From contig NC_014824.1 of the NCBI RefSeq assembly GCF_000179635.2, forward strand, positions 90,001 to 122,000: DNA of 32,000 nucleotides. Reading direction: 5' to 3'. This DNA is from Ruminococcus albus 7 = DSM 20455 (GTDB lineage: Bacteria; Bacillota; Clostridia; Oscillospirales; Ruminococcaceae). Position 1 is the first letter of the stretch. Every line of letters begins with the position of its first letter. The translations under genes and the position numbers were made by a program. The notes beneath the pieces were generated by a model. That model was not told where the DNA came from. It saw only the letters and a list, made by a program, of their open reading frames with translations, and ran no database searches. Shown piece by piece: positions 2,626-17,449 of the stretch.

Positions 2626-2805
2626 GAGATCTACCCCTTATTCCTTAATATGTTATGCGGCAGATAACATTAACGCCGCCAAAAATGTATTATACCACGA
2701 AAATCCGAAATATACAAGGGCAAAGCTAAACAAAGATATATAGGCGGTTTAGTGCATATCGGGAAATTAAATTGGTTTGATCGTATGATTTTAAATTATC
2801 GTAAG

Positions 2806-3245
2806 GTAAGCGCCAACCAAACCCAGCCCCTAAAGAGAAAAGCCGAGGCTTCCAATGAAACCTCGGCTTTGATCATTAGAGCCATCTACTTGTACTTTAC
2901 TACCGGTTACTATACTTCTCTACCAACGGCTGTAACTCTACTTTACAGCCAATTACTTTACCTCACTGTAAGTTTGCTTACAGTATGATGGAAGTGCCAT
3001 GCTCCAAGGCATTACCGATTTAAGCTGTGTTTCAGTTGGATCCGCCCCCCACTTGGGCAGGACGGTCAGCAGATAGAGCATATACCCATAGACATCAAGC
3101 TCATTTCTTTTTGCTGTTTCGATGATGCTCATAACTGCTGCGCTTGCAGCGGCTCCCTTTTCCGTGTCGCTAAAAAGGAAATTCTTTCGGTTGATGCCAT
3201 CCCCATTATCATCCTTTTCTTCTTTTATCCCTTTGAGTTCATTCT
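2806..3245 (-). mobile_element. IS66-family right-end remnant: terminal GTAAGCG plus the 3' fragment of the transposase gene
   Basis: Minus-strand translation reads ...GINRKNFLFSDTEKGAAASAAVMSIIETAKRNELDVYGYMLYLLTVLPKWGADPTETQLKSVMPW...*, with its stop at 2953-2955. This parallels ...GRKNWLFSNTANGARSSATLYSIISTAQA of the intact IS66 transposase at the window end. The terminus gtaagcgcc at 2806 resembles the IS66 ends at 7976 and 29679. The coding part has no N-terminal region. Confidence 0.7.
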
Positions 3246-3292
3246 CTCATCCACCTCATTATCAACAGACGCATCATTTACCCTTTCCTTAT

Positions 3293-3440
3293 TTCTCATC
3301 ATTCAAAAAAAAACAACTATATATAATTTTCACTTATGAATTTATATATACTTGCAATCTAAAATCATTCGCTTATTATTTTTCCTGAATACTTCATTAT
3401 ATTTCCTAATAGTACATTTTCTTTTCATATACTCTGTTTA
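3293..3440. repeat. Copy B of the ~145-bp AT-rich repeat
   Basis: Aligns with 505-650. Its palindrome is degenerate: caactatatataa 3314-3326 / tttatatatacttg 3341-3354, about 12/14 bp. Confidence 0.7.
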
Positions 3441-3541
3441 TTTGACGGTTATCTTAGTTTCACTTTCCGTCAATAGTATAAACTAATAATATTTTCTAAT
3501 ATAAAAATTGACGAATGGTCAAGAAAAACGGAACGATATTA

Positions 3542-3570
3542 TTGACATTGATGGTCATGTGTGCTAACAT
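3542..3570 (+). promoter_or_regulatory. Sigma-A type promoter of the DUF285 LRR gene
   Basis: TTGACA, 17-nt spacer, TAACAT. Homologous to the promoter block at 27073-27101 (attattgacattgat...atgtg.ta..atatt). Confidence 0.5.
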
Positions 3571-3619
3571 ATTATTGATATATTGCCGTTTCGGCACTAG
3601 AATTCAGGAGGACATAAAT

Positions 3620-5065
3620 ATGAAGTTAAAAAAAGTTTTAGCAGTAGTGATGTCACTTTGTATGGTGGCAGGAACTGTCAGCTACGGCGCACCTGTTATA
3701 ACACAGAGCATAACTGCGCAGGCGGCTGATTCAGCAACAAGCGGCTTTTCATTTAACCAAACAACAGGTATGCTTACGCTTAGCGGTACTGTTGATGGTG
3801 ATGCTTTACGTAAATTTAACAATACCTATCGCGATAACGTTTGGTCTGTCATAGTTTTGGAAGGAACTGTTCTTCCTGAAGACTGCAGCAAGCTTTTTTG
3901 CGAATATCCTTGTTATTCCATCGACCTTTCAAATGCGGATACAAGTAATGTAAAAAATATGAGCAGAATGTTCGATAACTGTTGCAATCTTAAATCGCTC
4001 AATTTAAGTGGATTTGATACAAGCAATGTTACTGATATGAGCTATATGTTCAACGAGTGTGGCAAACTTTATTCTATCGATGTAAGCGGATTTGATACAA
4101 GCAACGTTACAGATATGGGTGATATGTTCTCTCTTTGTGACCAATTAACATCGCTTGATGTAAGCAGATTTAACACAAGCAAAGTTACAGATATGAGTGG
4201 TATGTTCAATTCCTGTCTTAGCTTGTCAACGCTTGATGTTAGCGGTTTTGACACAAGCAATGTTACAGATATGTGTGATATGTTCTGGGGCTGTGCAAAA
4301 TTGACGTCACTTGATATTAGCAAATTTGACACAAGCAAAGTTACAAATATGGGTGGTATGTTCTGTGCCTGTAATAAATTGACTACACTTGATGTAAGCG
4401 GATTTGATACAAGCAAAGTAACCGATATGTCAGGAATGTTCGCTTCAACTAACTTATCAACACTTGATGTAAGCGGATTTGATACAAGCAAAGTAACCGA
4501 TATGATGGCAATGTTCTCTTCAAGAAATTTGACCGAACTTGATCTGAGCTCGTTTGATACAAGCAAAGTTACAAAGATGAACTGGATGTTCTCTTCTAAT
4601 CTACGTTCCCTTACTCTTGGCGAGAATTTCAAAAATGTTCCCGAAGAAGCAGAACTTTATAATGACAAAGGCTGGGTAAATTCCAAAGACATCGCGACTG
4701 TAGTCAGCGGTAACGGAGAGTATGCAGTTATCGAAAACACCGGCAAGAACACCTATAAGCGCTTACCTATCGTTGAAGAAACCAAGCTTACCTACCCTAC
4801 TAACATCAAAGTCGAGTACATAAAAAAATACCACCAGGTAAGATTCACATGGGATAAGGTCGAAAGTGCTGACAAATACAGCATTGCTGTTTTCCTTGCA
4901 GGCAAGTGGAGAGTTCAGAAACAGGATATCACCGGCACTGTTTATACATCTCCCAAAAATCTCACCCCGGGGAAGTCATACAAAGTCGCTATCGCTGCCA
5001 GAGTTGACGGAAAATGGGACACAGCAAATGCTATAAAACATTCGGGTACTGTTACTATAAGGTGA
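3620..5065 (+). CDS. Secreted DUF285/BspA-family LRR surface protein with C-terminal Fn3-like module
   Basis: SD aggagg, then ATG 3620. Signal peptide MKLKKVLAVVMSLCMVAGTVSYG. About 11 tandem 26-aa units of the form LDVSGFDTSNVTDMS.MF..C..LT. Tail KVEYIKKYHQVRFTWDKVESADKYSIAVFLAGKWRV...SGTVTIR. Confidence 0.85.
   Translation: MKLKKVLAVVMSLCMVAGTVSYGAPVITQSITAQAADSATSGFSFNQTTGMLTLSGTVDGDALRKFNNTYRDNVWSVIVLEGTVLPEDCSKLFCEYPCYSIDLSNADTSNVKNMSRMFDNCCNLKSLNLSGFDTSNVTDMSYMFNECGKLYSIDVSGFDTSNVTDMGDMFSLCDQLTSLDVSRFNTSKVTDMSGMFNSCLSLSTLDVSGFDTSNVTDMCDMFWGCAKLTSLDISKFDTSKVTNMGGMFCACNKLTTLDVSGFDTSKVTDMSGMFASTNLSTLDVSGFDTSKVTDMMAMFSSRNLTELDLSSFDTSKVTKMNWMFSSNLRSLTLGENFKNVPEEAELYNDKGWVNSKDIATVVSGNGEYAVIENTGKNTYKRLPIVEETKLTYPTNIKVEYIKKYHQVRFTWDKVESADKYSIAVFLAGKWRVQKQDITGTVYTSPKNLTPGKSYKVAIAARVDGKWDTANAIKHSGTVTIR
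3925..4600 (+). repeat. In-frame 78-bp tandem repeats encoding the 26-aa LRR units
   Basis: Periodic tttgatacaagcaa(t/a)gt.ac.gatatg motif every 78 nt. Confidence 0.8.
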
Positions 5066-5183
5066 CAGTTCAAAATTGATTCGATTTGATAAATGCAAAA
5101 CGGGACTGTTTCAACTAAGCAACAGCTCCTTCAAATTTGTCTCAACAAGAACAAGCTCTTTATTCTTAAAGGAGGAGGATCAT

Positions 5184-7859
5184 ATGAAAATTTTCAAACG
5201 CTTGACCGCTCTGTTTTGTACCGGTGGAATGCTCCTTATGTCAGCACCACACTGTGTTCTCACCTCTCATGCGGCACAAACAGTCAAGCTGTCACCGGAT
5301 AATACTTTTACCATAAACAATGGCGAATTTGAGGGCTGGGGTACATCTCTTTGCTGGTGGGCCAATCGCCTCGGCTATTCTGACTCGCTGGCACAGCAGG
5401 CAGCGGATGTGTTCTACGGTGATGAAGGTCTACGTCTTAATATTGCTCGCTTTAATATCGGCGGCGGTGATGATCCAAGCCACAATCATATCACACGAAC
5501 CGATTCCAATATGCCGGGATATACTAAGTATAGCAACGGAAAAATTACCTATGATTGGAGTGCTGATGCCAATCAGCGCAATGTGCTTATGCGGTCTATT
5601 CAGGCTGCCGGAGATGATATGATTGTGGAAATGTTCTCCAATTCGCCGCCCTATTACATGACGAAGAGCGGCTGTTCGTCAGGATCGGCAGATGCCAAAA
5701 GCAACAATCTGAAGGACGACCAATACGATGATTTTGCGCGGTATTTCGCGGAGGTTTGCTATCACTATCAGCACGACTGGGGCGTGAAGATCCAGAGCGC
5801 GGAAGCTATGAATGAGCCGTATACCAACTTCTGGAAGGCCAACAGCTACAAGCAGGAGGGCTGTCACTTCGATCAGGGAAGCTCGCAGTCAACCATGATC
5901 GTGGAGCTGCAAAAGGCGATGCGTGACAAGGGAATGGGCGATGTTATTCTTTGCGGTACGGATGAGACCTCCATTGACACGCAGATTAGCTCTTTTAACA
6001 AGCTCTCTAATGATGCCAAAAAAGCGATCGGTCGTATCGACACCCACACCTACGGCGGCAGCAAACGTGCCGAGCTAAAAAATATTGCCCTGTCCAACGG
6101 AAAAAATCTCTGGATGAGCGAGGTGGACAGCAGCGGCACGGCCGGGACGAATGCAGGTGAAATGAGTGCGGCACTCTGGCTGGCACAGCGTATCACGACC
6201 GATGTCAACGACATGAACGCATCGGCGTGGATCATGTGGCAGGTGATCGACAGCCACATTTCAAAGAACGGCTACAACGGCCGAAAGGATACCGGTATGG
6301 TGGACACGCAGAAGGGCTACTGGGGCGTGGCAGTTGCCAACCATGATGCAAATAAGATCGTTCTGACGAAGAAATACTACGCTTTCGGACAGTACTCGCG
6401 CTATATTCGCCCCGGTATGATTATGCTGAACTCCTCCGGCAATACTGTTGCCGCTTATGATCCTGAGACGGGACAGATCGTGGCTGTTTCCTACAATACA
6501 AGCGGCAGCAGTGCTGACATAACTTTCGATCTTTCAGACTTTGCTGAGGTTGGCAGCACGGCAAATGCGATCCGCACGAGCAAGAATGAGAACTGGAAGA
6601 ATGTGGGCACTATCAATCTAAACGGCAAAACGCTGAATGCAACCTTGCCCGGCAATTCCATCACAACGTTTGTCATTGAGGGAAATGGCAGTATAGGCGG
6701 CAATGAGATCAAGGTGCAGGCTGACAAGCTAAGCGGCTCTGACTCGTGGAAGCAAAATGCAGATACCGATTTCCACAAGGCTTTTGACGGCGACAACGCA
6801 ACATACTTCGACGGCACGAGAGTCGGCTGGGTACAGGCAGATCTGGGTGCGGTCTACGATCTGAGCGCACTTGCTTACTGCCCTCGTCAGAACTATGAAT
6901 ACCGTATGGTGGATGGCTATTTCGAGGTGTCGATGGACGGCACAGACTGGCAGAGCATACACACAATTAGTGAGAATCCCACATTTGCCATGCACAAAGT
7001 GAAACTTGAAAAGCCGATCACGGCACGTTATATCCGCTATGCAGTACCAGAGGGCAAGCCGCGCAACAGCTACAACACAAATGATGTTTATTGCTGTAAT
7101 GTAGCGGAAATCAAGCTCTATGGCACGCTGAATCCGGAGACGAGCTTTACAAAATTAGCGCCCGAAGCAACAAGCGGTACAGATTCGTGGAAGCAGCAGG
7201 AAGGCTACAATTACGGAAAGGCGTTTGATGGCGATACTGCAACCTACTTTGACGGTGTGGGTGCAGGCTGGGTACAGGCTGGTCTTGGGAAAATATGTGA
7301 GCTGAATGCGATCGCCTACACTCCCCGTAAGGGCTACGAAGCACGAATGGTGGACGGCTATTTCAGCGTTTCCGAGGATGGCACAAGCTGGCAGACGGTA
7401 CACACGATCGGCAGGATGCCCACATCGGACACACAGACCGTTATGCTCGATGCATCGGTGAAAGCAAGGTATATCCGCTACGCTGTTCCGGAGGGAAAGC
7501 CGAATAACGGCGTGAATACCGATGATGTGTACTGCTGCAATATTGCGGAGCTTGCGTTCTATGGCGCTGTACTGCCGAATGCGGTAATCAGCAACACTAT
7601 AAAAGTTGAATACAGCGAGAAATATCACCAGGTAAGATTCACATGGGATAAAGTCGAAGGCGCCGACAGATATGGAATTGCTGTATATCTTGCCGGCAAG
7701 TGGAGAGTTCAGGCGCAGAACATCACCGGTACGGTTTATACATCTCCCAAGAACCTGACACCCGGTAAGAAATACAGAGTCGCAATCGCTGCAAGGGTGA
7801 ACGGCAAATGGGATACCGCAAACGCTATCAAACATTCAGGTACCGTCACCATAAGATAA
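5184..7859 (+). CDS. Secreted glycoside hydrolase family 30 (clan GH-A) enzyme with two F5/8-type-C (CBM32-like) domains and a C-terminal Fn3-like module
   Basis: SD aaggagg, then ATG 5184, followed by a signal peptide. Motifs FEGWGTSLCWWANRLG, EAMNEPY (acid/base Glu) and LWMSEVD (nucleophile Glu). Two ~140-aa repeats: SWKQ...KAFDGD.ATYFDG...GWVQA.LG...ARYIRYAVPEGKP. Tail KVEYSEKYHQVRFTWDKVEGADRYGIAVYLAGKWRV...SGTVTIR. Confidence 0.9.
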   Translation: MKIFKRLTALFCTGGMLLMSAPHCVLTSHAAQTVKLSPDNTFTINNGEFEGWGTSLCWWANRLGYSDSLAQQAADVFYGDEGLRLNIARFNIGGGDDPSHNHITRTDSNMPGYTKYSNGKITYDWSADANQRNVLMRSIQAAGDDMIVEMFSNSPPYYMTKSGCSSGSADAKSNNLKDDQYDDFARYFAEVCYHYQHDWGVKIQSAEAMNEPYTNFWKANSYKQEGCHFDQGSSQSTMIVELQKAMRDKGMGDVILCGTDETSIDTQISSFNKLSNDAKKAIGRIDTHTYGGSKRAELKNIALSNGKNLWMSEVDSSGTAGTNAGEMSAALWLAQRITTDVNDMNASAWIMWQVIDSHISKNGYNGRKDTGMVDTQKGYWGVAVANHDANKIVLTKKYYAFGQYSRYIRPGMIMLNSSGNTVAAYDPETGQIVAVSYNTSGSSADITFDLSDFAEVGSTANAIRTSKNENWKNVGTINLNGKTLNATLPGNSITTFVIEGNGSIGGNEIKVQADKLSGSDSWKQNADTDFHKAFDGDNATYFDGTRVGWVQADLGAVYDLSALAYCPRQNYEYRMVDGYFEVSMDGTDWQSIHTISENPTFAMHKVKLEKPITARYIRYAVPEGKPRNSYNTNDVYCCNVAEIKLYGTLNPETSFTKLAPEATSGTDSWKQQEGYNYGKAFDGDTATYFDGVGAGWVQAGLGKICELNAIAYTPRKGYEARMVDGYFSVSEDGTSWQTVHTIGRMPTSDTQTVMLDASVKARYIRYAVPEGKPNNGVNTDDVYCCNIAELAFYGAVLPNAVISNTIKVEYSEKYHQVRFTWDKVEGADRYGIAVYLAGKWRVQAQNITGTVYTSPKNLTPGKKYRVAIAARVNGKWDTANAIKHSGTVTIR

Positions 7860-9507: not shown

Positions 9508-9638
9508 TCTGATCGAAATTTATTAAGGTTTAGATCCAACTCTACTCCATGTTATCAAGTAATAGAGCTGTTTTTATTATAGAAGGAATTTTTACGTGAT
9601 ATAAGCACTCTATAATAAAAAATATACCTACGGTTTAC

Positions 9639-9667
9639 TTGATTTTTTCTTGTAGATATGATATAAT
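9639..9667 (+). promoter_or_regulatory. Promoter of tRNA module 1
   Basis: TTGATT, 17-nt spacer, TGaTATAAT (extended -10). Confidence 0.65.
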
Positions 9668-9699
9668 GACCACAACATCAAAGAAAGGAGAAAACCGAG

Positions 9700-9828
9700 A
9701 TGAATAAGTTCACTGTTTCATATCTGTATAGCGAATCATTATTGAGCCTCGTCCTCGAATCGGAAGAGACTTCTTTTGTGCTGCGTACAGATAAAGTGGA
9801 TGAACATTTCGGGATTTCTTGTTTCTAA
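9700..9828 (+). CDS. Mini-ORF 1 (42 aa), candidate leader peptide: MNKFTVSYLYSESLLSLVLESEETSFVLRTDKVDEHFGISCF
   Basis: SD aaaggag lies 8 nt upstream of the ATG. The ORF lies between a consensus promoter and an intrinsic terminator. Codons 7-23 are almost exclusively Ser/Tyr/Leu/Glu. Confidence 0.6.
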   Translation: MNKFTVSYLYSESLLSLVLESEETSFVLRTDKVDEHFGISCF

Positions 9829-9851
9829 GTATTATTGATCCTTGTAAGTGA

Positions 9852-9886
9852 AACACCGTCTGTTTGCAGCAGGCGGTGTTTTTGTT
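9852..9886 (+). terminator. Intrinsic terminator / attenuator 1
   Basis: aacaccgtctg (9852-9862) pairs with caggcggtgtt (9870-9880). Loop tttgcag, followed by tttgtt. Confidence 0.75.
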
Positions 9887-9888
9887 AT

Positions 9889-9983
9889 GCCCATGTGTAT
9901 GAACGTTATCACCATAGTTGATAACTGGCATACATTTATGTTTTAGAAACAGGCTTTTTGGGGTTCGAGTCTCCCCACGGGTA
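9889..9983 (+). other. tRNA-like element (95 nt) with a canonical T-arm and acceptor end but no canonical anticodon arm; possibly a degenerate class-II tRNA
   Basis: T-arm tgggg-TTCGAGT-ctccc. Acceptor gcccatg/cacgggt has one A-C mismatch. Possible D-stem tatg/cata. I could not fold a 5-bp stem with a 7-nt anticodon loop. Confidence 0.3.
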
Positions 9984-9991
9984 TTATTTTT

Positions 9992-10066
9992 GCGGGATTG
10001 GCGGAACAGGCATACGCGACGGTCTCAAATACCGTTTTATTCAGGGTTCGACTCCCTGATTCCGCA
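9992..10066 (+). tRNA. tRNA with anticodon CAA (Leu) but a short (~6 nt) variable region
   Basis: Acceptor GCGGGAT/ATTCCGC plus A73. Leu-type D-arm TGGCGGAACAGGCATACGC. Anticodon stem ACGGT/ACCGT with loop CTCAAAT. T-arm CAGGG-TTCGACT-CCCTG. Total 75 nt. Confidence 0.7.
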
Positions 10067-10073
10067 TTTATAT

Positions 10074-10146
10074 GCTCTCGTAGACCAACGGCAGAGTGAA
10101 CGGACTTAAACCCCGTGTAGTGTGAGTTCGAATCTCACCGGGAGCA
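10074..10146 (+). tRNA. tRNA with anticodon UAA (Leu), class-I length, weak D-stem
   Basis: Acceptor GCTCTCG/CGGGAGC plus A73. Anticodon stem ACGGA/CCCGT with an A31-C39 mismatch, loop CTTAAAC. T-arm GTGAG-TTCGAAT-CTCAC. Only 2-3 bp of D-stem could be drawn. Confidence 0.55.
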
Positions 10147-10181
10147 TCAGGATCAATATACTTAGAAAGGAGATGTTTTCA

Positions 10182-10406
10182 ATGCCGGTGATAGACGTCA
10201 AAGCAACAGGAGCGAATATTAAAGCTATAATGAAAATGAAGGGCTTCAAGATCGCTGATGTTCAGGCAAGGTGCGGTTTCAATACTCCGCAGGCTATTTT
10301 CAAGTGGCTGCGTGGAGACGCTGTGCCAACTATAGATAATATGATAATCATAGCCGATATGTTCGGCGTGACTATCGATCAGATAGTTATAATCAAGAAG
10401 ATCTGA
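10182..10406 (+). CDS. Small XRE-family helix-turn-helix protein (74 aa), embedded between tRNA genes
   Basis: SD aaaggag, then ATG 10182. Sequence MPVIDVKATGANIKAIMKMKGFKIADVQARCGFNTPQAIFKWLRGDAVPTIDNMIIIADMFGVTIDQI. Roughly half of its residues match the protein at 11429-11659 by eye. Confidence 0.8.
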   Translation: MPVIDVKATGANIKAIMKMKGFKIADVQARCGFNTPQAIFKWLRGDAVPTIDNMIIIADMFGVTIDQIVIIKKI

Positions 10407-10430
10407 CTGTTATTGCGGTAACAGTCATAA

Positions 10431-10502
10431 GGCTGCATCGTCTAATGGTCAGGACACAAGGTTTTCAACCTTGAAACGTGGGTTCAACTCCCACTGCGGT
10501 CA
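10431..10502 (+). tRNA. tRNA-Glu (UUC)
   Basis: Acceptor GGCTGCA/TGCGGTC. D-arm GTCTAATGGTCAGGAC. Anticodon stem CAAGG/CCTTG with loop TTTTCAA. T-arm GTGGG-TTCAACT-CCCAC. Confidence 0.8.
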
Positions 10503-10567: not shown

Positions 10568-10596
10568 TTGACTTTTCGGGGATTTTCTTATATAAT
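10568..10596 (+). promoter_or_regulatory. Promoter of the gene at 10648-11094
   Basis: TTGACT, 17-nt spacer, TATAAT. Confidence 0.55.
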
Positions 10597-10647: not shown

Positions 10648-11094
10648 ATGTCCATAGATAAAAGAACCGAAATGATCCTAAAAAAAGAGTCATTGACTAT
10701 ATTCAATCAGTTTTGTTCAAAACTGCCATCGGAGTCTTTAGGTCTGTTAATGATGTATCTGCAAAAGTTCAATGACGATAATCCTGATAACGGAACCATT
10801 GTTTTTACTAAAAAAGAATATGAAAAGAAGCTGGGAAATGAAGAAATATCAATCGATGAAATTCAGGACGGCATTCCAGATTTACTAGGTCCGGTAAGAT
10901 TTAAAGGCGATATTCAAATAATGTTTTCTATGTTCATAAGCATTAATATCAGGAAAATAAGCAATGAATATTCAATATTTATGACCTGCAGTGATATTGC
11001 AAAGGATTATATCTTTACCGATCCAAATGTTGCAAAGTATAATTTTATAGACGAGATAAAGAGAAGAATAGACGAGTTAACAAGTATAATGTAG
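10648..11094 (+). CDS. Hypothetical protein (148 aa); only a vague resemblance to winged-helix replication-initiator N-terminal domains
   Basis: SD aaagga, then ATG 10648 (MSIDKRTEMILKKESLTIFNQF...). No motif I can name with confidence. Confidence 0.55.
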   Translation: MSIDKRTEMILKKESLTIFNQFCSKLPSESLGLLMMYLQKFNDDNPDNGTIVFTKKEYEKKLGNEEISIDEIQDGIPDLLGPVRFKGDIQIMFSMFISINIRKISNEYSIFMTCSDIAKDYIFTDPNVAKYNFIDEIKRRIDELTSIM

Positions 11095-11107
11095 CTTACA
11101 AAGCTAC

Positions 11108-11136
11108 TTGACAATTCTCTTTATGAGTGTTATAAT
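11108..11136 (+). promoter_or_regulatory. Promoter of tRNA module 2
   Basis: TTGACA, 17-nt spacer, TGtTATAAT (consensus, extended -10). Confidence 0.7.
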
Positions 11137-11196
11137 CAGTTACAACAAGAGGGGAGCAACGATCTCCCGAAATTATATTACGAAAGGGTGAAAACA

Positions 11197-11334
11197 ATGA
11201 ATTCTATCATGAACAATACTGTTGTCAGATCATATGATGATTACCAGTGCTTCTTTAGCTTTAGTTTTGATTGGCAAGACGAAGGCTTATTTGTGCTGCA
11301 TACGAACACCGGTAATTGTTCAGTTCAAAGATAG
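11197..11334 (+). CDS. Mini-ORF 2 (45 aa), candidate leader peptide: MNSIMNNTVVRSYDDYQCFFSFSFDWQDEGLFVLHTNTGNCSVQR
   Basis: SD aaagggtg. The ORF lies between a consensus promoter and an intrinsic terminator. Codons 13-28 read YDDYQCFFSFSFDWQD. Confidence 0.6.
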   Translation: MNSIMNNTVVRSYDDYQCFFSFSFDWQDEGLFVLHTNTGNCSVQR

Positions 11335-11366
11335 AGTTTATTGACCATCTTCTGAGAGAATATGAC

Positions 11367-11407
11367 CGCCTGTATGTAGTGCAAACTCATACAGGCGATT
11401 TTTTATT
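11367..11407 (+). terminator. Intrinsic terminator / attenuator 2
   Basis: Perfect 10-bp stem cgcctgtatg / catacaggcg with an 11-nt loop, followed by attttttatt. Confidence 0.8.
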
Positions 11408-11428
11408 CTATCGGAAGGTGGTATTATT

Positions 11429-11659
11429 ATGACTGAAGAGATGCCTGTCATAAATATGACAGCGACAGGTTCCAATATAAAGACTCTTATAAAAGCAAAA
11501 GGTTTTAAAGTGACAGAGCTTCAGAACATTCTGGTGTTCAACACACCTCAGTCCATATTCAAATGGATGAGAGGGGAGTCCATACCCTCTATCGACAATC
11601 TGGTGATTCTGGCACATATACTGAATGTCACCATTGATGAGATAATAATCCTTAACTAA
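11429..11659 (+). CDS. Small XRE-family helix-turn-helix protein (76 aa), paralog of 10182-10406
   Basis: SD aaggtgg. Sequence MTEEMPVINMTATGSNIKTLIKAKGFKVTELQNILVFNTPQSIFKWMRGESIPSIDNLVILAHILNVTIDEI. Confidence 0.8.
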   Translation: MTEEMPVINMTATGSNIKTLIKAKGFKVTELQNILVFNTPQSIFKWMRGESIPSIDNLVILAHILNVTIDEIIILN

Positions 11660-11684
11660 TACGTCCTGTTCATTCAGGACACAC

Positions 11685-11758
11685 GGCTCCGTAGTTTAAC
11701 CGGCTAAAACACCGGCCTGTCACGTCGGAGAGCGCGGGTTCAAGTCCCGCCGGAGTCG
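11685..11758 (+). tRNA. tRNA-Asp (GUC)
   Basis: Acceptor GGCTCCG/CGGAGTC plus G73. Anticodon stem CCGGC/GTCGG with loop CTGTCAC. T-arm GCGGG-TTCAAGT-CCCGC. Confidence 0.85.
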
Positions 11759-11764
11759 TCATAA

Positions 11765-11835
11765 TTCCGTTTCGTCTAGTGGTAGGACATCGGTTTCTGA
11801 CACCGAAAACGGGAGTTCAAATCTCTCAGCGGAAA
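11765..11835 (+). tRNA. tRNA-Gln (CUG)
   Basis: Acceptor TTCCGTT/AGCGGAA (U1-A72). Anticodon stem TCGGT/ACCGA with loop TTCTGAC. T-arm GGGAG-TTCAAAT-CTCTC. Confidence 0.8.
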
Positions 11836-11841
11836 TAATTT

Positions 11842-11912
11842 GACTGTGTAGCCAAGTGGAAAGGCTGTCGGCTGCAACCCGACGAGCGTAGGTTCGATCC
11901 CTATCACAGTCT
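11842..11912 (+). tRNA. tRNA-Cys (GCA)
   Basis: Acceptor GACTGTG/CACAGTC plus U73. Anticodon stem GTCGG/CCGAC with loop CTGCAAC. T-arm GTAGG-TTCGATC-CCTAT. Confidence 0.85.
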
Positions 11913-11922
11913 TTAATCACAT

Positions 11923-11995
11923 GCCTCTGTAGCTCAGTTGGTAGAGCGTATGCCTGAAGAGCATAGCGTCGCAAGTTCGATTCTTGCCGGAGGCA
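11923..11995 (+). tRNA. tRNA-Phe (GAA)
   Basis: Acceptor GCCTCTG/CGGAGGC. D-arm TAGCTCAGTTGGTAGAGC. Anticodon stem TATGC/GCATA with loop CTGAAGA. T-arm GCAAG-TTCGATT-CTTGC. Confidence 0.9.
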
Positions 11996-12017
11996 CTTGT
12001 AAAAGTACAAATGTTTT

Positions 12018-12046
12018 TTGAATATCACAAATGTTATCTGTACTAA
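12018..12046 (+). promoter_or_regulatory. Possible internal promoter between tRNA-Phe and tRNA-Gln(UUG)
   Basis: TTGAAT, 17-nt spacer, TACTAA. A weak hairpin ttgta-aaag-tacaa plus a T-run (11997-12019) precedes it. Confidence 0.3.
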
Positions 12047-12048
12047 AT

Positions 12049-12120
12049 TTCCGTTTCGTCTAACAGGCAGGACAACAGACTTTGACTCTGTCAATGGGAG
12101 TTCGATCCTCTCAACGGAAG
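12049..12120 (+). tRNA. tRNA-Gln (UUG)
   Basis: Acceptor TTCCGTT/AACGGAA plus G73. Anticodon stem ACAGA/TCTGT with loop CTTTGAC. T-arm GGGAG-TTCGATC-CTCTC. Confidence 0.85.
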
Positions 12121-12127
12121 CTAATAA

Positions 12128-12204
12128 GTCTCTATTACAAATTATGTATTGAAATTCTATCGGGTATCATCTTTAGAATTCAAGGAGTAGTTTGTAATAG
12201 AGAT
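12128..12204. repeat. 77-nt bipartite hairpin in the spacer between tRNA-Gln(UUG) and tRNA-Trp
   Basis: Outer arms gtctctattacaaa (12128-12141) / tttgtaatagagat (12191-12204). Inner arms aattcta / tagaatt. Confidence 0.6.
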
Positions 12205-12213
12205 GATAGAAAT

Positions 12214-12285
12214 AGGAGAATAGTTCAATGGCTAGAATGACGGTCTCCAAAACCGTAGATCTCAGTTCGACTCTGAGTTCTCCTG
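12214..12285 (+). tRNA. tRNA-Trp (CCA)
   Basis: Acceptor AGGAGAA/TTCTCCT plus G73. Anticodon stem ACGGT/ACCGT with loop CTCCAAA. T-arm CTCAG-TTCGACT-CTGAG. Confidence 0.85.
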
Positions 12286-12302
12286 TCTATACTACAGGTT
12301 TA

Positions 12303-12331
12303 TTGAAATCTGTACTAAGTTATGTTATAAT
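12303..12331 (+). promoter_or_regulatory. Promoter of tRNA module 3
   Basis: TTGAAA, 17-nt spacer, TGtTATAAT (extended -10). Confidence 0.7.
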
Positions 12332-12363
12332 GTCATTAAAGAAATCAAGAAAGGAAGTTCATT

Positions 12364-12456
12364 ATGAAAAACACAGTATTTGCATTCTCATATTCATATA
12401 GTTATTCAAGCGTTGTTCAGAAGAATAAGGCTCGTTTGGCTATGCGTGAATGTTGA
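12364..12456 (+). CDS. Mini-ORF 3 (30 aa), candidate leader peptide: MKNTVFAFSYSYSYSSVVQKNKARLAMREC
   Basis: SD aaaggaag lies 7 nt upstream of the ATG. The ORF lies between a consensus promoter and an intrinsic terminator. Codons 9-16 read SYSYSYSS (tca tat tca tat agt tat tca agc). Confidence 0.6.
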   Translation: MKNTVFAFSYSYSYSSVVQKNKARLAMREC

Positions 12457-12482
12457 TACTGCTTGATGATAAGCTTCAGCAT

Positions 12483-12520
12483 ATACCGTTTGGCTTTCGG
12501 GTCAGGCGGTATTTTTATTT
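12483..12520 (+). terminator. Intrinsic terminator / attenuator 3
   Basis: ataccgtttggc pairs with gtcaggcggtat (12 bp including G-U pairs). Loop tttcgg, followed by ttttatttgtt. Confidence 0.75.
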
Positions 12521-12527
12521 GTTATTC

Positions 12528-12613
12528 GGGAGAGTCACCCAGCGGCGAGGGCAGCGGTCCGTAAAACCGTGACATTAGAAACATCGAAGGTTCGAGTCCT
12601 TCCTCTCCCACCA
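12528..12613 (+). tRNA. tRNA-Tyr (GUA), class II, CCA encoded, C at position 33
   Basis: Acceptor GGGAGAG/CTCTCCC, then A and CCA. Anticodon stem GCGGT/ACCGT with loop CCGTAAA. Long variable arm. T-arm GAAGG-TTCGAGT-CCTTC. Confidence 0.8.
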
Positions 12614-12617
12614 ATAT

Positions 12618-12703
12618 GAGCAGGTACAGAGAATCGGCAAACTCGGCGGTCTGTAAAACCGTTGCTTTATGCGTAGTGGGGTCGGCACCCACCCTGCCCA
12701 CCA
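12618..12703 (+). tRNA. Second tRNA-Tyr (GUA), divergent (A2-C71 mismatch, non-canonical T-loop), CCA encoded
   Basis: Acceptor GAGCAGG/CCTGCCC, then A and CCA. Anticodon loop CTGTAAA. T-arm GTGGG-GTCGGCA-CCCAC lacks the TTCRA signature. Confidence 0.6.
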
Positions 12704-12706
12704 TAT

Positions 12707-12798
12707 GTTGGCATAACCCTAACTGGTAAGGGATCGTCTTGGAAAGGCGAGAGTAATCGGAGTTTTCCGATGTTTCGGTTCGAATCCGAATGCCGACG
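12707..12798 (+). tRNA. tRNA-Ser (GGA)
   Basis: Acceptor GTTGGCA/TGCCGAC plus G73. Anticodon stem TCGTC/GGCGA with loop TTGGAAA. Long variable arm atcgga-gttt-tccgat. T-arm TTCGG-TTCGAAT-CCGAA. Confidence 0.85.
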
Positions 12799-12804
12799 TT
12801 ATGC

Positions 12805-12890
12805 GCTGTGTTAGTGTAATTGGTAACACACTGCTCCCGAAAAGCAGCGTCCTTTTGGACTTACAGGTTCGAGTCCTGTACACAGCGCCA
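12805..12890 (+). tRNA. tRNA-Ser (CGA), CCA encoded
   Basis: Acceptor GCTGTGT/ACACAGC, then G and CCA. Anticodon stem CTGCT/AGCAG with loop CCCGAAA. Variable arm gtcc-tttt-ggac. T-arm ACAGG-TTCGAGT-CCTGT. Confidence 0.8.
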
Positions 12891-12893
12891 TAT

Positions 12894-12988
12894 GGTCACA
12901 TAAGCCTAATTGGTAAGGCAGCGGTTTGCTAAACCGTGAGTAATCGGGTTATTCTGATGTCCGAGTTCAAATCTCGGTGTGGCCGCCA
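12894..12988 (+). tRNA. tRNA-Ser (GCU), CCA encoded
   Basis: Acceptor GGTCACA/TGTGGCC, then G and CCA. Anticodon stem GCGGT/ACCGT with loop TTGCTAA. Long variable arm. T-arm CCGAG-TTCAAAT-CTCGG. Confidence 0.85.
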
Positions 12989-12991
12989 TCT

Positions 12992-13078
12992 GCCGTGTAT
13001 GCAGGCTGGCTCTGCAAACTGTCTTGAAAACAGTATACCGTAAAAAACGGTACGTGGGTTCGATTCCCTCACGCGGCG
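12992..13078 (+). tRNA. tRNA-Ser (UGA)
   Basis: Acceptor GCCGTGT/ACGCGGC plus G73. Anticodon stem ACTGT/ACAGT with loop CTTGAAA. Variable arm taccg-taaaaaa-cggta. T-arm GTGGG-TTCGATT-CCCTC has one mismatch. Confidence 0.8.
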
Positions 13079-13123
13079 CTATAATAAACTATATTCATTA
13101 GAATGTGATTTTAGCAAAAAGAA

Positions 13124-13560: not shown

Positions 13561-13678
13561 ATAAATTTTCTTGTATAATAATATTGTAGATAATAATTAA
13601 TAACTGGAGGTCAGACAGATCAAATAATACTACTAATATAACACTATGGAACATAAAGCCATAAAAGGAGTGAACACT

Positions 13679-14797
13679 ATGGCAAACAAAGCATTTAAAT
13701 TCAGAATATACCCAAATAACGAGCAAAAGGTTTTGTTTGCCAAAACCTTCGGCTGTGTGAGATTGGTATATAACTATTGGTTATACAAAAAGATCAAGCA
13801 GTATAAAGAATATGAGACAACTTTAAATTACAATGCTTGTGCCAAAGAAATGGCTGAACTTAAGAAAATGGAGAAATACTCATTCTTACGGGAAGTGGAC
13901 AGCGTATCATTGCAGCAGTCGCTTCGACACCTGGATACAGCGTTTCAGAACTTCTATAAACAGCCTAAAACAGGATTTCCCAGGTTCAAATCAAAAAAAT
14001 GTAAAAAGAACAGCTATTCTACCGTTTGTATCAATGGTAACATAGCCATATCCAATGGATACTTGAAATTACCTAAAGTCGGACAAGTCAAAGTAAAACA
14101 GCACAGGAACATTCCTAATGAATATGTTCTCAAGTCTGTGACAGTAAGTCAGACTCCAAGCGGAAAATACTATGCAAGTATTCTGTATGAGTACGAAAAC
14201 CAAGTACAGGAACAGGAACTGCATGACTTCTTAGGGCTTGACTTTTCGATGCACGAGCTGTACAAAGACAGCAACGGCAATGAACCGGCTTACCCCGGAT
14301 ACTACAGAAGAGCTGAAAAAAAGCTAAAAAGAGAACAAAAAAAACTTTCTCTTATGCAGAAAGGCTCTAAAAACCGTGATAAACAACGTATCAAGGTTGC
14401 TAAAATGCATGAGAAAGTTGCAAATCAACGAAAGGACTTTCTACATAAACAGTCAAGACAGATAGCCAATGCCTATGATTGTGTATGTATAGAAGATCTA
14501 AACATGCAAGCAATGTCTCAGGCACTTAAATTCGGCAAGTCGGTTTCAGATAACGGCTGGGGAATGTTTGTAACATTCCTGAAGTACAAACTGGAAGAGC
14601 AAGGCAAAAGGCTTGTAAAGATAGATAAATTCTTTGCGAGCAGTCAGACTTGTTCGTGCTGTGGATACATCAATAAGGAAACAAAGAACCTTGCTATAAG
14701 AGCATGGGACTGTCCCGAATGCGGAACTCACCATAACAGAGATGTAAATGCTGCAATAAATATAAGAAATGAAGGTATGCGTATAGCATTAGCGTAG
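13679..14797 (+). CDS. tnpB: TnpB RNA-guided endonuclease (IS200/IS605 OrfB family), apparently intact
   Basis: SD aaaggag, then ATG 13679 (MANKAFKFRIYPNNEQ...). RuvC residues are present: LGLDFS (D), CIEDLN (E), HNRDVNAAINI (D). Zinc finger CSCCG...CPECG. Confidence 0.9.
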   Translation: MANKAFKFRIYPNNEQKVLFAKTFGCVRLVYNYWLYKKIKQYKEYETTLNYNACAKEMAELKKMEKYSFLREVDSVSLQQSLRHLDTAFQNFYKQPKTGFPRFKSKKCKKNSYSTVCINGNIAISNGYLKLPKVGQVKVKQHRNIPNEYVLKSVTVSQTPSGKYYASILYEYENQVQEQELHDFLGLDFSMHELYKDSNGNEPAYPGYYRRAEKKLKREQKKLSLMQKGSKNRDKQRIKVAKMHEKVANQRKDFLHKQSRQIANAYDCVCIEDLNMQAMSQALKFGKSVSDNGWGMFVTFLKYKLEEQGKRLVKIDKFFASSQTCSCCGYINKETKNLAIRAWDCPECGTHHNRDVNAAINIRNEGMRIALA

Positions 14798-14930
14798 CCT
14801 TAAATCATAAAAACCGTGGGACACACGGGGTTAGCTCGCTTATGCTTAGTGCATTAGTACTATCGAACGAGAACCGAACTCGCTGAGGTCAGGGGAAGCC
14901 CCCGCCTCTTTAGGCGGGGGAGGATGTCAC
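14798..14930 (+). ncRNA. Probable omega-RNA (reRNA) scaffold 3' part of element 1
   Basis: Structured sequence directly after tnpB, ending in the hairpin cccccgcc/ggcggggg plus aggatgtcac at the element end. The position matches the known TnpB omega-RNA layout. The 5' boundary probably lies inside the tnpB 3' end and was not determined. Confidence 0.5.
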
Positions 14931-15243
14931 CCTTGTATACTACAGGAATAAGCTCATTTGTATTCTTGACCTGTATCAGAAGTGAACGTCCGCTCATGCT
15001 GTATTCATCATCTACATATCTTATTATAACAGTGCTGTCGGGAATCAGTTGTTGTAGTATTTTTTCATAAACCTTTCTGTCGAAGATGAAATCAGAATCC
15101 GTTGCTGACGTGAAAACCTCGATAGCATAACAAAGACTGTCGAGTTCTTCTTCAGATTCAGCACCTGCAATATAGTCATCATACGCGACCTTGATGAAGA
15201 ACCCATACTCGTTGTTATCATAATACTCTACTTTCATGGACAA
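14860..15243 (-). CDS. Hypothetical protein (127 aa as read); the last ~24 codons are read from the IS element right end
   Basis: ORF MSMKVEYYDNNEYGFFIKVAYDDY...VVYKG, followed by DILPRLKRRGLPLTSASSVLVR, which overlaps 14860-14930 (the IS hairpin). Its start lies 18 nt after the upstream PTP-like gene. Confidence 0.55.
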   Translation of the reverse strand: MSMKVEYYDNNEYGFFIKVAYDDYIAGAESEEELDSLCYAIEVFTSATDSDFIFDRKVYEKILQQLIPDSTVIIRYVDDEYSMSGRSLLIQVKNTNELIPVVYKGDILPRLKRRGLPLTSASSVLVR

Positions 15244-15260
15244 TTCCTCCGAAAATAAAA

Positions 15261-15578
15261 TTACAAATATTCACTTACGCTGCTATCAAGCAAAGCGATA
15301 AGTTCCTCGTCCATAAACCCATATTCATCGGGAATGTTTAAGCAGATAACCTTTTTGTTCGAAAGTGACGAACTGTATTTATCCTTTATTCTACGAAGAT
15401 GTTTCTTTTCCATACAAAAGATCATGTCGGCCCAGCCGATAAGACCTTCCGTGACTTTCACACGAGAATTGTTTTCCGTTCCTGCAGAACGTACCTGATG
15501 TCCATTGTATCCGTCGAAGTATTTCTCGGCTGTAAGACTTCGGCGTTTGTTTTGACTACATAGAAATAGTATTTTCAT
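15261..15578 (-). CDS. Low-molecular-weight protein-tyrosine-phosphatase-like protein (105 aa)
   Basis: N-terminal MKILFLCSQNKRRS contains the C-X5-R(S/T) P-loop. The size and the later D-containing loop fit the LMW-PTP/ArsC-like fold (from memory). Confidence 0.65.
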   Translation of the reverse strand: MKILFLCSQNKRRSLTAEKYFDGYNGHQVRSAGTENNSRVKVTEGLIGWADMIFCMEKKHLRRIKDKYSSSLSNKKVICLNIPDEYGFMDEELIALLDSSVSEYL

Positions 15579-16123
15579 GGAGTTCCTTTAGTTGTCATTC
15601 ATTCCGAATTTTTTGCTTAATAATCTGGCTTTCCACTTGTTCTCGATTTTGACGATTTAGCCGCCGCACGCTCGTGACTTTAGTCATGAGCGTGCGGCGG
15701 CATTTCTTGACATTCTGTTGAGCATGGTCGAGGGTATGTATATTCATTGTAATACCATATCGTAAGAGCTACCAAATACAGGAAGTCCTGATCATATACT
15801 TCGTCTTGTAAACTGTAAGCCTCAATTAAGAACGTCAGATACTATAATTCTTAAGTGAAAGACAGCTAAGTGAGTAAGATTAGCTGTCTTTCTGCATCTT
15901 AAACCTCATAAAAAGAAAAATTGAATTCTGTTTTTGTCACGCGTGACACAAACACAGAACAACTTTTAAGTATATAAAATTTTAAATTCTTAAAAAAATC
16001 TACTATAATAAATATATATGGAAACCATCGTATTTTGTAGCAACTGTAAGCGACAGAAGTCTTAAACAGGTAACAGATTACATTAATTCTCAAAAAACCA
16101 AGTAGAAGGAGGGAGTCTGCAGT

Positions 16124-17449
16124 ATGCAGATATATACGACTTACAGCGTTAAGATCAAGCATTACAACAACATCTTTAAAGATACCGTTATCGTATACAG
16201 ACATGCTGTAGATTACCTTATCAGCGTTTGTCTGGATCATTGGGATAACATTGTTACATTCAAAGGGGTGAGTAGACTCACATATATTGAAACACTGATC
16301 CATGCTACAAAAGATAATCCCGATCCAATTTATGATTTTGATGCCAAATTCTATAAGATGCCAAGCTATCTGCGCCGTGGTGCAATCAACGAGGCTATAG
16401 GCAAGGTATCATCTTACAAAAGCAATCTCGATAACTGGATCAAAGATCCGGTCGGAAGAGAACCATCGCATCCAAAAGCAGGTTATTCATTCCCGTCTAT
16501 GTATCGTACAGGAATGTACAATCAGACCGGTGATTATACTGCCCAGATCAAAGTCTACATCCGTAATACATGGGACTGGATAACGATAAACCTTAAAAAG
16601 TCTGATATGGATTATATATACAGACATTGCCGCTTACGCAAACAATGCGCTCCAACACTTCAAAAACGAGGCAAGGAGTGGTTTTTGGACTTTCCGTTTG
16701 AGGAAAAGGTCAAACTTGCAGATATATCTGTGTATGAACAGACCATTGTTGCTGTAGATCTTGGTATCAACACTGCCGCTACGGTTTCCGTAATGCGTTC
16801 AGATGGCACTATTCTTGGAAGGCATTTTTGTAAGCTTACCAAAGAAACAGACCATCTGATGCATAGCATTAACCGTATAAAAAAAGCTCAGCAGCATGGT
16901 AACTATAAAACACCAAGGCTTTGGGCAAAAGCCAAAGGCATCAATCACGACATTGCCATAAAAACTGCGAACTGCATCGTAAATATAGCTGTTCTTTATA
17001 ATGCAGATGTTATTGTATTTGAGCATTTAGACAAGAACGGTAAGGTCCGCGGTTCTAAAAAGCAGAAACTCAAGCTGTGGCGCAGTCAGGAAGTTCAGTC
17101 TATTGTAACGAATAAAGCTCACAGACTGGGTATGAGAGTAAGCCATATCTGTGCATGGAATACGTCACGCCTTGCCTACGATGGCAGTGGTTTTGTACTT
17201 CGTGGTAAATTCGGTGGTTTCAATACCTATGAGCTATGCAAATTTCAAAATGGCAAGTCCTACAACTGTAATCTATCTGCTTCGTATAATATTGGGGCAA
17301 GATATTTCATACGTGAAATATTAAAATCCTTGGATGAGAATTCAAGGTTGCTCATTGAGGCAAAAGTACCTCAATGCAGTAAGAGAAGCACCTGCACGTT
17401 CTCTACCTTAGTTAACCTGAATGCGGAAATTATTGCTCAAACAGCATAA
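16124..17449 (+). CDS. TnpB-related protein (441 aa) with an atypical RuvC-III / zinc-finger region
   Basis: SD ggaggga, then ATG 16124. RuvC-I IVAVDLGIN and RuvC-II DVIVFEHLD are present. The position aligning to RDVNAAINI reads CNLSASYNI (Asn instead of Asp). The CxxC...CxxC cysteines are replaced by LAYDGSG ... CKFQNGKSYNC. Confidence 0.75.
   Translation: MQIYTTYSVKIKHYNNIFKDTVIVYRHAVDYLISVCLDHWDNIVTFKGVSRLTYIETLIHATKDNPDPIYDFDAKFYKMPSYLRRGAINEAIGKVSSYKSNLDNWIKDPVGREPSHPKAGYSFPSMYRTGMYNQTGDYTAQIKVYIRNTWDWITINLKKSDMDYIYRHCRLRKQCAPTLQKRGKEWFLDFPFEEKVKLADISVYEQTIVAVDLGINTAATVSVMRSDGTILGRHFCKLTKETDHLMHSINRIKKAQQHGNYKTPRLWAKAKGINHDIAIKTANCIVNIAVLYNADVIVFEHLDKNGKVRGSKKQKLKLWRSQEVQSIVTNKAHRLGMRVSHICAWNTSRLAYDGSGFVLRGKFGGFNTYELCKFQNGKSYNCNLSASYNIGARYFIREILKSLDENSRLLIEAKVPQCSKRSTCTFSTLVNLNAEIIAQTA

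Follow-up and report, generated by a model that had tools for sequence, protein, structure and literature searches.

The window analysed here is a 32,000-nt stretch of Ruminococcus albus 7 = DSM 20455 (assembly GCF_000179635.2, contig NC_014824.1, positions 90,001 to 122,000 of the forward strand). It carries three consecutive modules, each consisting of a promoter, a short leader open reading frame (ORF), a terminator and a set of tRNA genes. For module 1 (9639–10502), an earlier note made from the DNA alone had proposed that the codons of the leader correspond to the tRNAs encoded behind it. The features of this module are listed below by window position.

9622–9638 (+): imperfect inverted repeat, ATATACC-N4-GGTTTAC, immediately next to the -35 hexamer; candidate operator for the XRE helix-turn-helix (HTH) protein
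9639–9667 (+): sigma-70-type promoter, TTGATT and TATAAT with a 17-nt spacer and a TG extension (promoter scan, 10/12 matches)
9685–9692 (+): Shine-Dalgarno (SD) site of the leader ORF, AAGGAGAA
9700–9828 (+): leader ORF, 42 codons plus stop, MNKFTVSYLYSESLLSLVLESEETSFVLRTDKVDEHFGISCF
9718–9768 (+): putative regulatory codon run, codons 7–23, with 5 Leu, 4 Glu, 5 Ser, 2 Tyr and 1 Val
9721–9732 (+): segment 1, TATCTGTATAGC, anti-antiterminator strand, carrying the Y-L-Y-S codons
9778–9793 (+): segment 2, GTGCTGCGTACAGATA, within the ORF and encoding the conserved FVLRT
9800–9835 (+): anti-SD segment, complementary to the SD/start region 9676–9703
9850–9886 (+): intrinsic terminator, with segment 3 (9852–9867) as 5' arm and segment 4 (9868–9882) as 3' arm, then TTTTTGTT
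9889–9984 (+): 95-nt element derived from tRNA-Leu(UAG), with a hairpin insertion of ~20 nt in the D arm
9991–10067 (+): short, class-I-shaped tRNA, anticodon CAA, discriminator A73 (ARAGORN; Rfam 51.5 bits)
10073–10148 (+): short tRNA, anticodon UAA, discriminator A73 (ARAGORN; Rfam 43.1 bits)
10182–10406 (+): XRE/Cro-type HTH protein, 74 aa, embedded in the tRNA operon (Pfam HTH_3, E=9.5e-10)
10431–10502 (+): tRNA-Glu(UUC), accessory isodecoder (ARAGORN; Rfam 66.2 bits)

We consider it probable, at roughly 0.8, that module 1 works as a transcription attenuator of the ribosome-mediated, leader-peptide kind, gating a small accessory tRNA operon. It has an SD site with a short ORF, a run of cognate codons, a terminator ahead of the genes, and 1:2 and 2:3 helices that exclude each other and are so placed that a ribosome stalled at the regulatory codons would favour 2:3; this last point holds only in folds confined to the RNA beyond the ribosome. 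Only 3 nt separate the terminator T run from the first tRNA-like gene; they contain no promoter-like site and leave no room for a promoter. The view of the leader as a codon-matched sensor of its tRNAs gains support in silico from the anatomy and its conservation, from compensatory changes in both helices, from the match and covariation between leaders and tRNA sets, and from a phage tRNA array.

Codons 7–23 read SYLYSESLLSLVLESEE, as the earlier note had reported, and TTA and TTG stand side by side at 9739–9744 (codons 14–15). Its count of five Glu codons is correct for the whole ORF; just four fall within the run, and the fifth (E35) lies further downstream. The anticodons CAA, UAA and UUC were read correctly, and the Ser/Tyr pairs said to be common to all three window leaders correspond to a shared TCATAT. 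The looser match described for the CTG and CTC Leu codons has an explanation, as the UAG of the 95-nt element, if functional, would read both. Leu and Glu make up 9/17 of the core codons, compared to 10.8% across the window's long ORFs (binomial probability ~2e-5, for a run chosen post hoc). The comparative tests that follow are stronger than this enrichment in a single leader.

Leaders and their tRNA sets

The other two modules of the window, also on the forward strand, are composed as follows.

11108–12287 (+): module 2, with promoter, leader MNSIMNNTVVRSYDDYQCFFSFSFDWQDEGLFVLHTNTGNCSVQR (11197–11334), terminator, HTH gene and tRNAs Asp, Gln, Cys, Phe, Gln, Trp
12303–13079 (+): module 3, with promoter, leader MKNTVFAFSYSYSYSSVVQKNKARLAMREC (12364–12456), terminator, tRNA-Tyr, a degenerate Tyr-like element and four tRNA-Ser

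Alignment of the leader regions indicates that the three modules are paralogous, with conserved flanks and a variable central codon run. Conserved in all three are the promoter (its position is also kept across homologous loci), the ATGAA start, TCATAT, TTTGTGCTGCrTAC and the terminator ACCGyCTG...CAGGCGrT-T5. The codon core of leader 2 is SYDDYQCFFSFSFDWQDEG and that of leader 3 is FSYSYSYSS; module 3 has no HTH gene.

A search with the HTH protein of bacterial assemblies, one genome per species, gave 79 loci, all in rumen Ruminococcus or Oscillospiraceae; among them are several strains of R. flavefaciens and, at 100% identity, R. albus AR67. A profile built from the three window leaders picked out 85 elements there, each of them upstream of tRNAs, and 80 metagenome loci contributed 88 further leaders, for ~170 homologous elements in total. 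The HTH gene co-occurs with leaders and tRNA modules in the 79 genome loci, the 80 metagenome loci and one phage array. Nearly all homologues have GAAAGGAG or GAAAGGGTG 7–9 nt before the ATG of an ORF of 30–55 codons. Cultured carriers are R. albus AR67 and KH2T6, and R. flavefaciens FD-1, 007c and ATCC 19208. Four of the leader cores, with the tRNAs behind them, are given here.

Leader core VYLYSEHYEESFYHESEE: tRNAs Glu, His, Tyr, Glu, Ser
Leader core NNLYSHSEYYLLSLYLEE: four tRNAs Leu, then Glu, Tyr
Leader core RQYVFFAQQFQFRFFRQWQ: tRNAs Trp, Phe, Gln
Leader core SFNDYQCDFSFDFAWQQD: tRNAs Asp, Gln, Phe, Gln, Cys, Trp

The fraction of cognate codons was 0.36, compared to 0.196 ± 0.029 when tRNA sets were permuted among 22 leader clusters, and 0 of 10,000 such shuffles reached the observed value. 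Mean codon numbers in leaders with and without the cognate tRNA were 6.1 vs. 1.1 for Leu, 4.6 vs. 1.8 for Glu, 1.7 vs. 0.3 for His, 4.0 vs. 0.17 for Asp, 3.6 vs. 0.26 for Gln, 1.0 vs. 0.1 for Cys, 4.3 vs. 0.75 for Phe and 1.0 vs. 0.02 for Trp. Trp codons occur in all leaders with a downstream tRNA-Trp (8/8) and in 2/54 others, and the Trp match is also found within the module-2-like family alone (Fisher p=0.0006). When ten amino acids are tabulated across 62 modules, a tRNA lacks its amino acid in the leader in only three cells. The 31 new metagenome modules follow the same rule, with one exception cell.

Two IMG/VR contigs (55 kb and 253 kb) carry a homologue of the HTH protein (68% identity) inside an array of 26 tRNAs that adjoins a tail sheath gene. 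With 26 tRNAs in 3.8 kb, this phage locus (L080) qualifies as a tRNA array unit, defined as at least 20 tRNA genes at a density of at least 2 per kb (PMC4758250); the window, with 14 called tRNAs and 2 degenerate ones in 3.2 kb, falls outside the definition. Read from its sequence, the phage array contains three short ORFs, each preceded by an SD site and followed by a hairpin and a T run.

Phage leader A, MRSYEIINNTTVMNKPATSGFGFVCSFALVDPDAIATGRTGWNRKVAKYIGYRRR: tRNAs Ala, Val, Arg, Gly, Arg, Thr, Asp, Pro, Met
Phage leader C, MMLQSISNRIKSIRSQFCNKNWFNCDESIDCST: tRNAs Phe, Ile, Lys, Lys, Trp, Gln, Cys, Asn, Arg
Phage leader B, MTTFRSLYLHSELSESLYSSLAFQFACADNGKI: Leu(UAG), Leu(CAA), Leu(UAA), HTH gene, Glu, His, Ser(UGA), Tyr, Ser(GCU)

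All the amino acids of a block are represented in its own phage leader, and the correct assignment of leaders to blocks scored 1.68 vs. at most 1.09 for the other five permutations. All 16 codons in the core of leader B, SLYLHSELSESLYSSL, are readable by the tRNAs behind it, judging from the sequence. Leader B is homologous to module 1 of the window (nhmmer E=0.009) and the order of its block is identical, so the window modules look like fragments of such an array. In this genome the Tyr and Ser tRNAs occupy the separate module 3, whereas the phage and many Ruminococcus loci have them in the Leu/Glu block. A second viral scan, with the phage HTH protein, returned the same two contigs and one HTH relative without tRNAs. 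Cultured phages were considered as close relatives and set aside, as they matched individual tRNAs only. Four direct repeats of CTTGCAACTAA lie before the leader B promoter (L080, 4427–4470), and two gaps of ~300–400 nt in the array (2229–2641 and 2716–3014) hold no tRNAs or convincing ORFs.

Competing RNA structures and the attenuation model

Duplex energies in module 1 are -13.5 kcal/mol for 1:2, -15.5 for 2:3 and -20.7 for 3:4, which, as in classical attenuators, is a plausible range for competing helices. The terminator hairpin 3:4 has 15 pairs, is GC-rich and was also found by a terminator scan. The 1:2 pairing is present in minimum-free-energy structures, and segment 2 is conserved in all modules.

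Both helices are supported by covariation among 51 distinct homologues. Helix 2:3 is paired in 93% of cells, with changes on both sides in 5/10 pairs, and its central three positions alternate among AU, GU, GC, UA and CG. These values were reached by 0 of 500 shuffles, and in a control with the 3' partner slid by 1–3 columns, 13–62% of cells were paired. Terminator helix 3:4 is paired in 92.8%, also with compensatory changes. In variants with a short stem, the bases that pair with segment 2 sit in the terminator loop, and their complementarity to segment 2 is therefore not explained by the terminator itself.

In the ribosome-free fold, segment 2 is paired upstream (0.83) and 2:3 is absent. To model ribosome placement, folding was confined to the stretch that runs from the downstream side of the ribosome through segment 3, which is a modelling choice. 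With the A-site at codons 7–23 of module 1, helix 2:3 forms with P ~0.6–0.7, decreasing to zero by codon 27–28; this range coincides with the run flagged in the earlier note. The same behaviour is predicted for modules 2 and 3.

On the attenuation model, transcription would begin at the promoter (9639–9667), and a ribosome would translate the 42-codon leader as RNA polymerase nears the terminator (9850–9886). With fast decoding of the Leu and Glu codons in 9718–9768 (ancestrally also Ser and Tyr), the ribosome would pass segment 2, which would then be covered or would re-pair with segment 1 behind the ribosome; the 3:4 terminator would form and the tRNAs would not be made. When charged cognate tRNA is scarce, we infer that the ribosome would stall within the run and keep segment 1 from segment 2. 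Segment 2 would then pair with segment 3 on its emergence, blocking the terminator and allowing read-through into the tRNA-Leu genes, the HTH gene and tRNA-Glu. The new tRNAs would relieve the stall, making the module a negative-feedback homeostat of decoding capacity. A second, promoter-level feedback may come from the HTH protein, which probably binds the repeat next to the -35 hexamer. In addition, the SD/start region (9676–9703) can form a duplex of -23.4 kcal/mol with 9800–9835. Across module-1-type homologues, z for this complementarity is about -3 to -6, and module-2-type ones lack it. The anti-SD segment could thus limit translation to one pioneer round, as has reportedly been proposed for trpL.

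Several points weigh against this model. The equilibrium fold of the whole leader with a masked ribosome footprint was rejected as a model of the switch, as the terminator wins with P ~0.95 at every ribosome position, and when pairing across the ribosome is allowed a clean switch is predicted for module 3 only. Since equilibrium folds favour the terminator, the model depends on kinetic, co-transcriptional folding, as in classical attenuators. RNA polymerase of Bacillus subtilis outruns the ribosome, which raises doubt about coupling in Ruminococcus. As for composition, 8 of the 17 core codons of module 1 (Ser, Tyr, Val) have no cognate tRNA in their own operon; the unmatched Ser and Tyr codons can be ascribed to the role of segment 1 and to the relocation of the Tyr and Ser tRNAs to module 3. 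Tyr and Ser codon counts barely discriminate across modules. The match of Leu codons to anticodons is imperfect, with mostly CTN leaders in some operons that have tRNA-Leu(UAA) only, and we make no claim of codon-level specificity for the Ruminococcus modules. The homologues also belong to a small number of ancient module types; p-values therefore suggest more independent events than there were, and gains and losses within families are the more telling evidence. Finally, amino-acid-specific leader-peptide attenuators are rare in Firmicutes, where the Bacillus His-leader shows that they do exist (PMC2965389).

Any stall within codons 7–25 would trigger the architecture described above, and Ser and Tyr codons occur in all leaders whatever their tRNA set. 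Both points would suit a general sensor of translation stress, in which any slowing of the leader ribosome (e.g., by antibiotics or ribosome damage) leads to read-through irrespective of the codon; stress-induced accessory tRNA operons are known (PMC8421152), and erm/cat-type leaders and the Anabaena trn operon invite comparison. Such a sensor predicts no tracking of the tRNA set, whereas the core does track it amino acid by amino acid, including the rare Trp and Cys, within and between families and in the phage. The two readings are compatible with each other, and we regard a sensor without codon specificity as unlikely. Much less probable still is that the mini-ORF encodes a functional peptide or is spurious, with the hairpin acting as an ordinary end terminator and the tRNAs being transcribed from elsewhere or by leak-through. 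It is true that the peptide itself shows conservation in its C-terminal half (FVLRT...), but the FVLRT codons are exactly segment 2 and covary with the 5' arm and loop of the terminator, which places the constraint on the RNA. In its variable part the peptide keeps its composition rather than its sequence and follows the tRNA set, and the 3 nt behind the T run offer no promoter-like site from which the tRNAs could be transcribed.

Firmicutes usually control genes related to aminoacyl-tRNA through T-boxes, and the HTH gene is always nearby, which raises the question of whether the leader RNA senses tRNA directly, or acts through the HTH protein or another antitermination factor, without translation. 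We give this very little credence. No Rfam leader or T-box family matched between 9550 and 13150 at the gathering score or at E<=1, where tRNAs were the only matches, and T-boxes read one tRNA each, against the 2–9 amino acids matched by these leaders. The SD site and ORF are conserved, module 3 lacks an HTH gene, and HTH_3 is a DNA-binding fold. Chance or plain co-inheritance could in principle account for the resemblance between leader composition and tRNA set, given that the run was noticed post hoc, that module types are few, and that a best match in the 3x3 comparison within the window has a chance level of 1 in 6. The shuffle test, the presence/absence counts, the switches within families and the replication in metagenomes and phage all speak against this, and we find it scarcely credible.

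Beyond leader-peptide attenuation itself, we suggest only tentatively what the modules are for. The accessory tRNA sets of rumen Ruminococcus, like those of at least one large phage, might carry codon-resolved decoding sensors, with each block transcribed only while ribosomes stall at the codons its own tRNAs read, and might serve as a backup tRNA supply, induced when housekeeping tRNAs are destroyed or depleted; anticodon nucleases, tRNA-targeting toxins and phage-host conflict would be the triggers. Backup supply is possible because the module tRNAs differ from the housekeeping ones, including Leu tRNAs without a variable arm. If this were so, phage and bacterial tRNA arrays would gain a defined regulatory logic and a role in counter-defence.

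The tRNAs and the candidate operators

The 95-nt element at 9889–9984 had been described as uninterpretable, and it was called neither by ARAGORN nor by Rfam, even at E<=1. Nevertheless, it can be aligned in full with the tRNA-Leu(UAG), 76 nt long, that occupies the corresponding position of locus L002, and also with the tRNA-Leu(CAG) of five other loci, from which it differs by the D-arm hairpin of ~20 nt. Its anticodon loop is UUUAGAA, and the same insertion is found in R. albus AR67 (L001). The copy in the window has an extra A:C mismatch in the acceptor stem, and may therefore be a decaying gene.

The CAA and UAA tRNAs are 76–77 nt long (the mature UAA tRNA being 10075–10147, from a reading of the acceptor stem), with a variable loop of 5–6 nt instead of the long arm of bacterial tRNA-Leu, which is class II and ~85–90 nt in length. 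The Leu tRNAs called in modules of the genome loci are all similarly short (73–78 nt). The 38 distinct short tRNAs with Leu anticodons (CAG, CAA, UAA, AAG, UAG) from related loci, a family to which the window UAA tRNA belongs, share a common cloverleaf with compensatory changes in 18/20 pairs, a canonical T loop and an invariant A73. The earlier note had named pseudogene status of the CAA and UAA genes as a point that would tell against its reading; the cloverleaf kept by compensatory changes indicates that they are not pseudogenes. In addition, over its entire length the CAA tRNA of the window can be aligned with a class II tRNA-Leu(CAA) of 91 nt in phage locus L080, from which it differs in lacking the variable arm. 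Because A73 is a major identity element for LeuRS in Escherichia coli, charging of the short CAA and UAA tRNAs with leucine is plausible.

The module tRNA-Glu is strongly different from the invariant housekeeping tRNA-Glu(UUC) that adjoins modules in L027, L035 and L036, and the tRNA content of modules differs between strains. On these sequence grounds, the module tRNAs are accessory isodecoders. A short tRNA-Leu with anticodon AAG (A34) occurs in L003, L005–L008, L014, L015, L018, L019, L025, L056, L057 and L065. Such an anticodon is uncommon in bacteria; its presence implies that A-to-I editing extends beyond tRNA-Arg or else that A34 decodes directly.

Inverted repeats abut the -35 hexamers of all three module promoters (9622–9638, 11090–11107 and 12288–12302). 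They take the form TATACC-N4-GGTWTA at module-1 and module-3 promoters, and GTAGCTT-ACA-AAGCTAC at R. albus module-2 promoters. In most homologous promoters, TATACC-N4-GGT(T/A)TA lies directly 5' of TTGAC, and it is fully palindromic in L059, L062 and L063. The HTH protein of module 1 is 54% identical to its module 2 paralogue (11429–11659). The repeats are likely operators, with two specificities for the two HTH paralogues, and we infer the regulatory role of the HTH protein from this arrangement.

Modules 2 and 3 have some features of their own. A second element resembling tRNA-Tyr (12614–12703) lies between tRNA-Tyr and the first tRNA-Ser of module 3, with the anticodon loop CUGUAAA (GUA) and a 3' CCA. 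It was called neither by ARAGORN nor by Rfam (E<=1), has an aberrant T loop (GTCGGCA) and an acceptor-stem mismatch, and is probably a decaying duplicate. The tRNA called Ser(UGA) by ARAGORN at 12991–13078 scores 43.6 bits with the Rfam tRNA-Sec model (gathering score 47), above the general tRNA model; as its anticodon is UGA and not UCA, it is most likely an odd tRNA-Ser. In module 2, a stable hairpin in the 5' untranslated region (5'-UTR), GGGAG-N7-CTCCC (11152–11168), lies between the transcription start and the SD site. An equivalent hairpin in R. flavefaciens reads ACAGGAACGGTCG...CGACC.CTGT, and it is present in many leaders and absent from window modules 1 and 3.

Related systems and genomic surroundings

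Bacterial tRNA genes are usually viewed as housekeeping genes under growth-rate control, and the role and regulation of extra arrays are debated. The classical attenuators of Proteobacteria (trp, his, leu, thr, ilvGMEDA, pheA) combine a codon-rich leader, four segments and a terminator, and those of thr and ilv are multivalent leaders that sense several amino acids. The modules described here differ from them in that the putatively regulated genes are tRNAs, a product that acts directly on the sensed step, and in that one leader would sense up to 5–9 amino acids. They also have leaders of 30–55 codons with ~60 nt between segments 2 and 3, and their hosts are Clostridia and a phage. Attenuation of the translation apparatus is shared with pheM-pheST and with the His-leader of hisS/hisZ in Bacilli; those systems control protein genes and respond to one amino acid, whereas the modules target tRNA genes and several amino acids. 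Like T-boxes, the modules are Firmicutes leaders that would sense the state of a specific tRNA pool through a choice between terminator and antiterminator. T-boxes, however, bind uncharged tRNA through one specifier codon, independently of translation, and control aminoacyl-tRNA synthetase, biosynthesis and transport genes.

The nearest functional analogue, judged by comparison, is the trn operon of Anabaena sp. PCC 7120, a silent accessory tRNA array that is induced by translational stress (PMC8421152). It is controlled by a small ribbon-helix-helix repressor, TrcR, that binds repeats over the -10 box (PMC10272220). The two systems share accessory tRNAs distinct from the housekeeping ones and a small DNA-binding regulator at the promoter, in the modules a putative one; unlike the signal proposed for the modules, the Anabaena signal is not codon-resolved. 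Text searches of PMC8421152 and PMC10272220 turned up neither a leader nor attenuation nor a terminator.

The modules also resemble phage tRNA clusters (T4, T5, Herelleviridae) in that extra tRNAs are clustered on a mobile genome. Lactobacillus phages have short tRNA-Leu genes ~80% identical to those of the window. The tRNA cluster of Lactobacillus phage Semele likewise contains short tRNA-Leu genes, and a leader ORF with a terminator was not found there. To our knowledge, control of a phage tRNA cluster by a codon-matched leader is undescribed. Leader-peptide control of tRNA genes was unreported in the literature searched, which left most subscription journals outside its coverage. The modules would represent a known mechanism, leader-peptide attenuation, applied in a new way, to tRNA genes. 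If the attenuation model is true, tRNA supply would be under direct feedback, each operon having its own set of codons, and the modules would add a large conserved family of amino-acid-specific leader attenuators in Clostridia, where these had been regarded as rare. The leaders are short, modular, naturally varied in specificity and present in cultured strains, which makes the case testable.

Between modules 1 and 2 lies a near-consensus promoter (TTGACT-17-TATAAT, 10568–10596), 3' of which is an ORF of 148–161 aa (10609/10648–11094); Pfam and PHROG searches with the 148-aa form gave no matches. The tRNA modules are surrounded by genes for BspA-type surface proteins with LRR/DUF285 domains, two TnpB/IS605-type genes and an IS110 transposase (1099–7859, 13646–17449, 23697–24593 and 27163–29547). 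The surroundings look like a variable region rich in mobile elements rather than a core tRNA locus.

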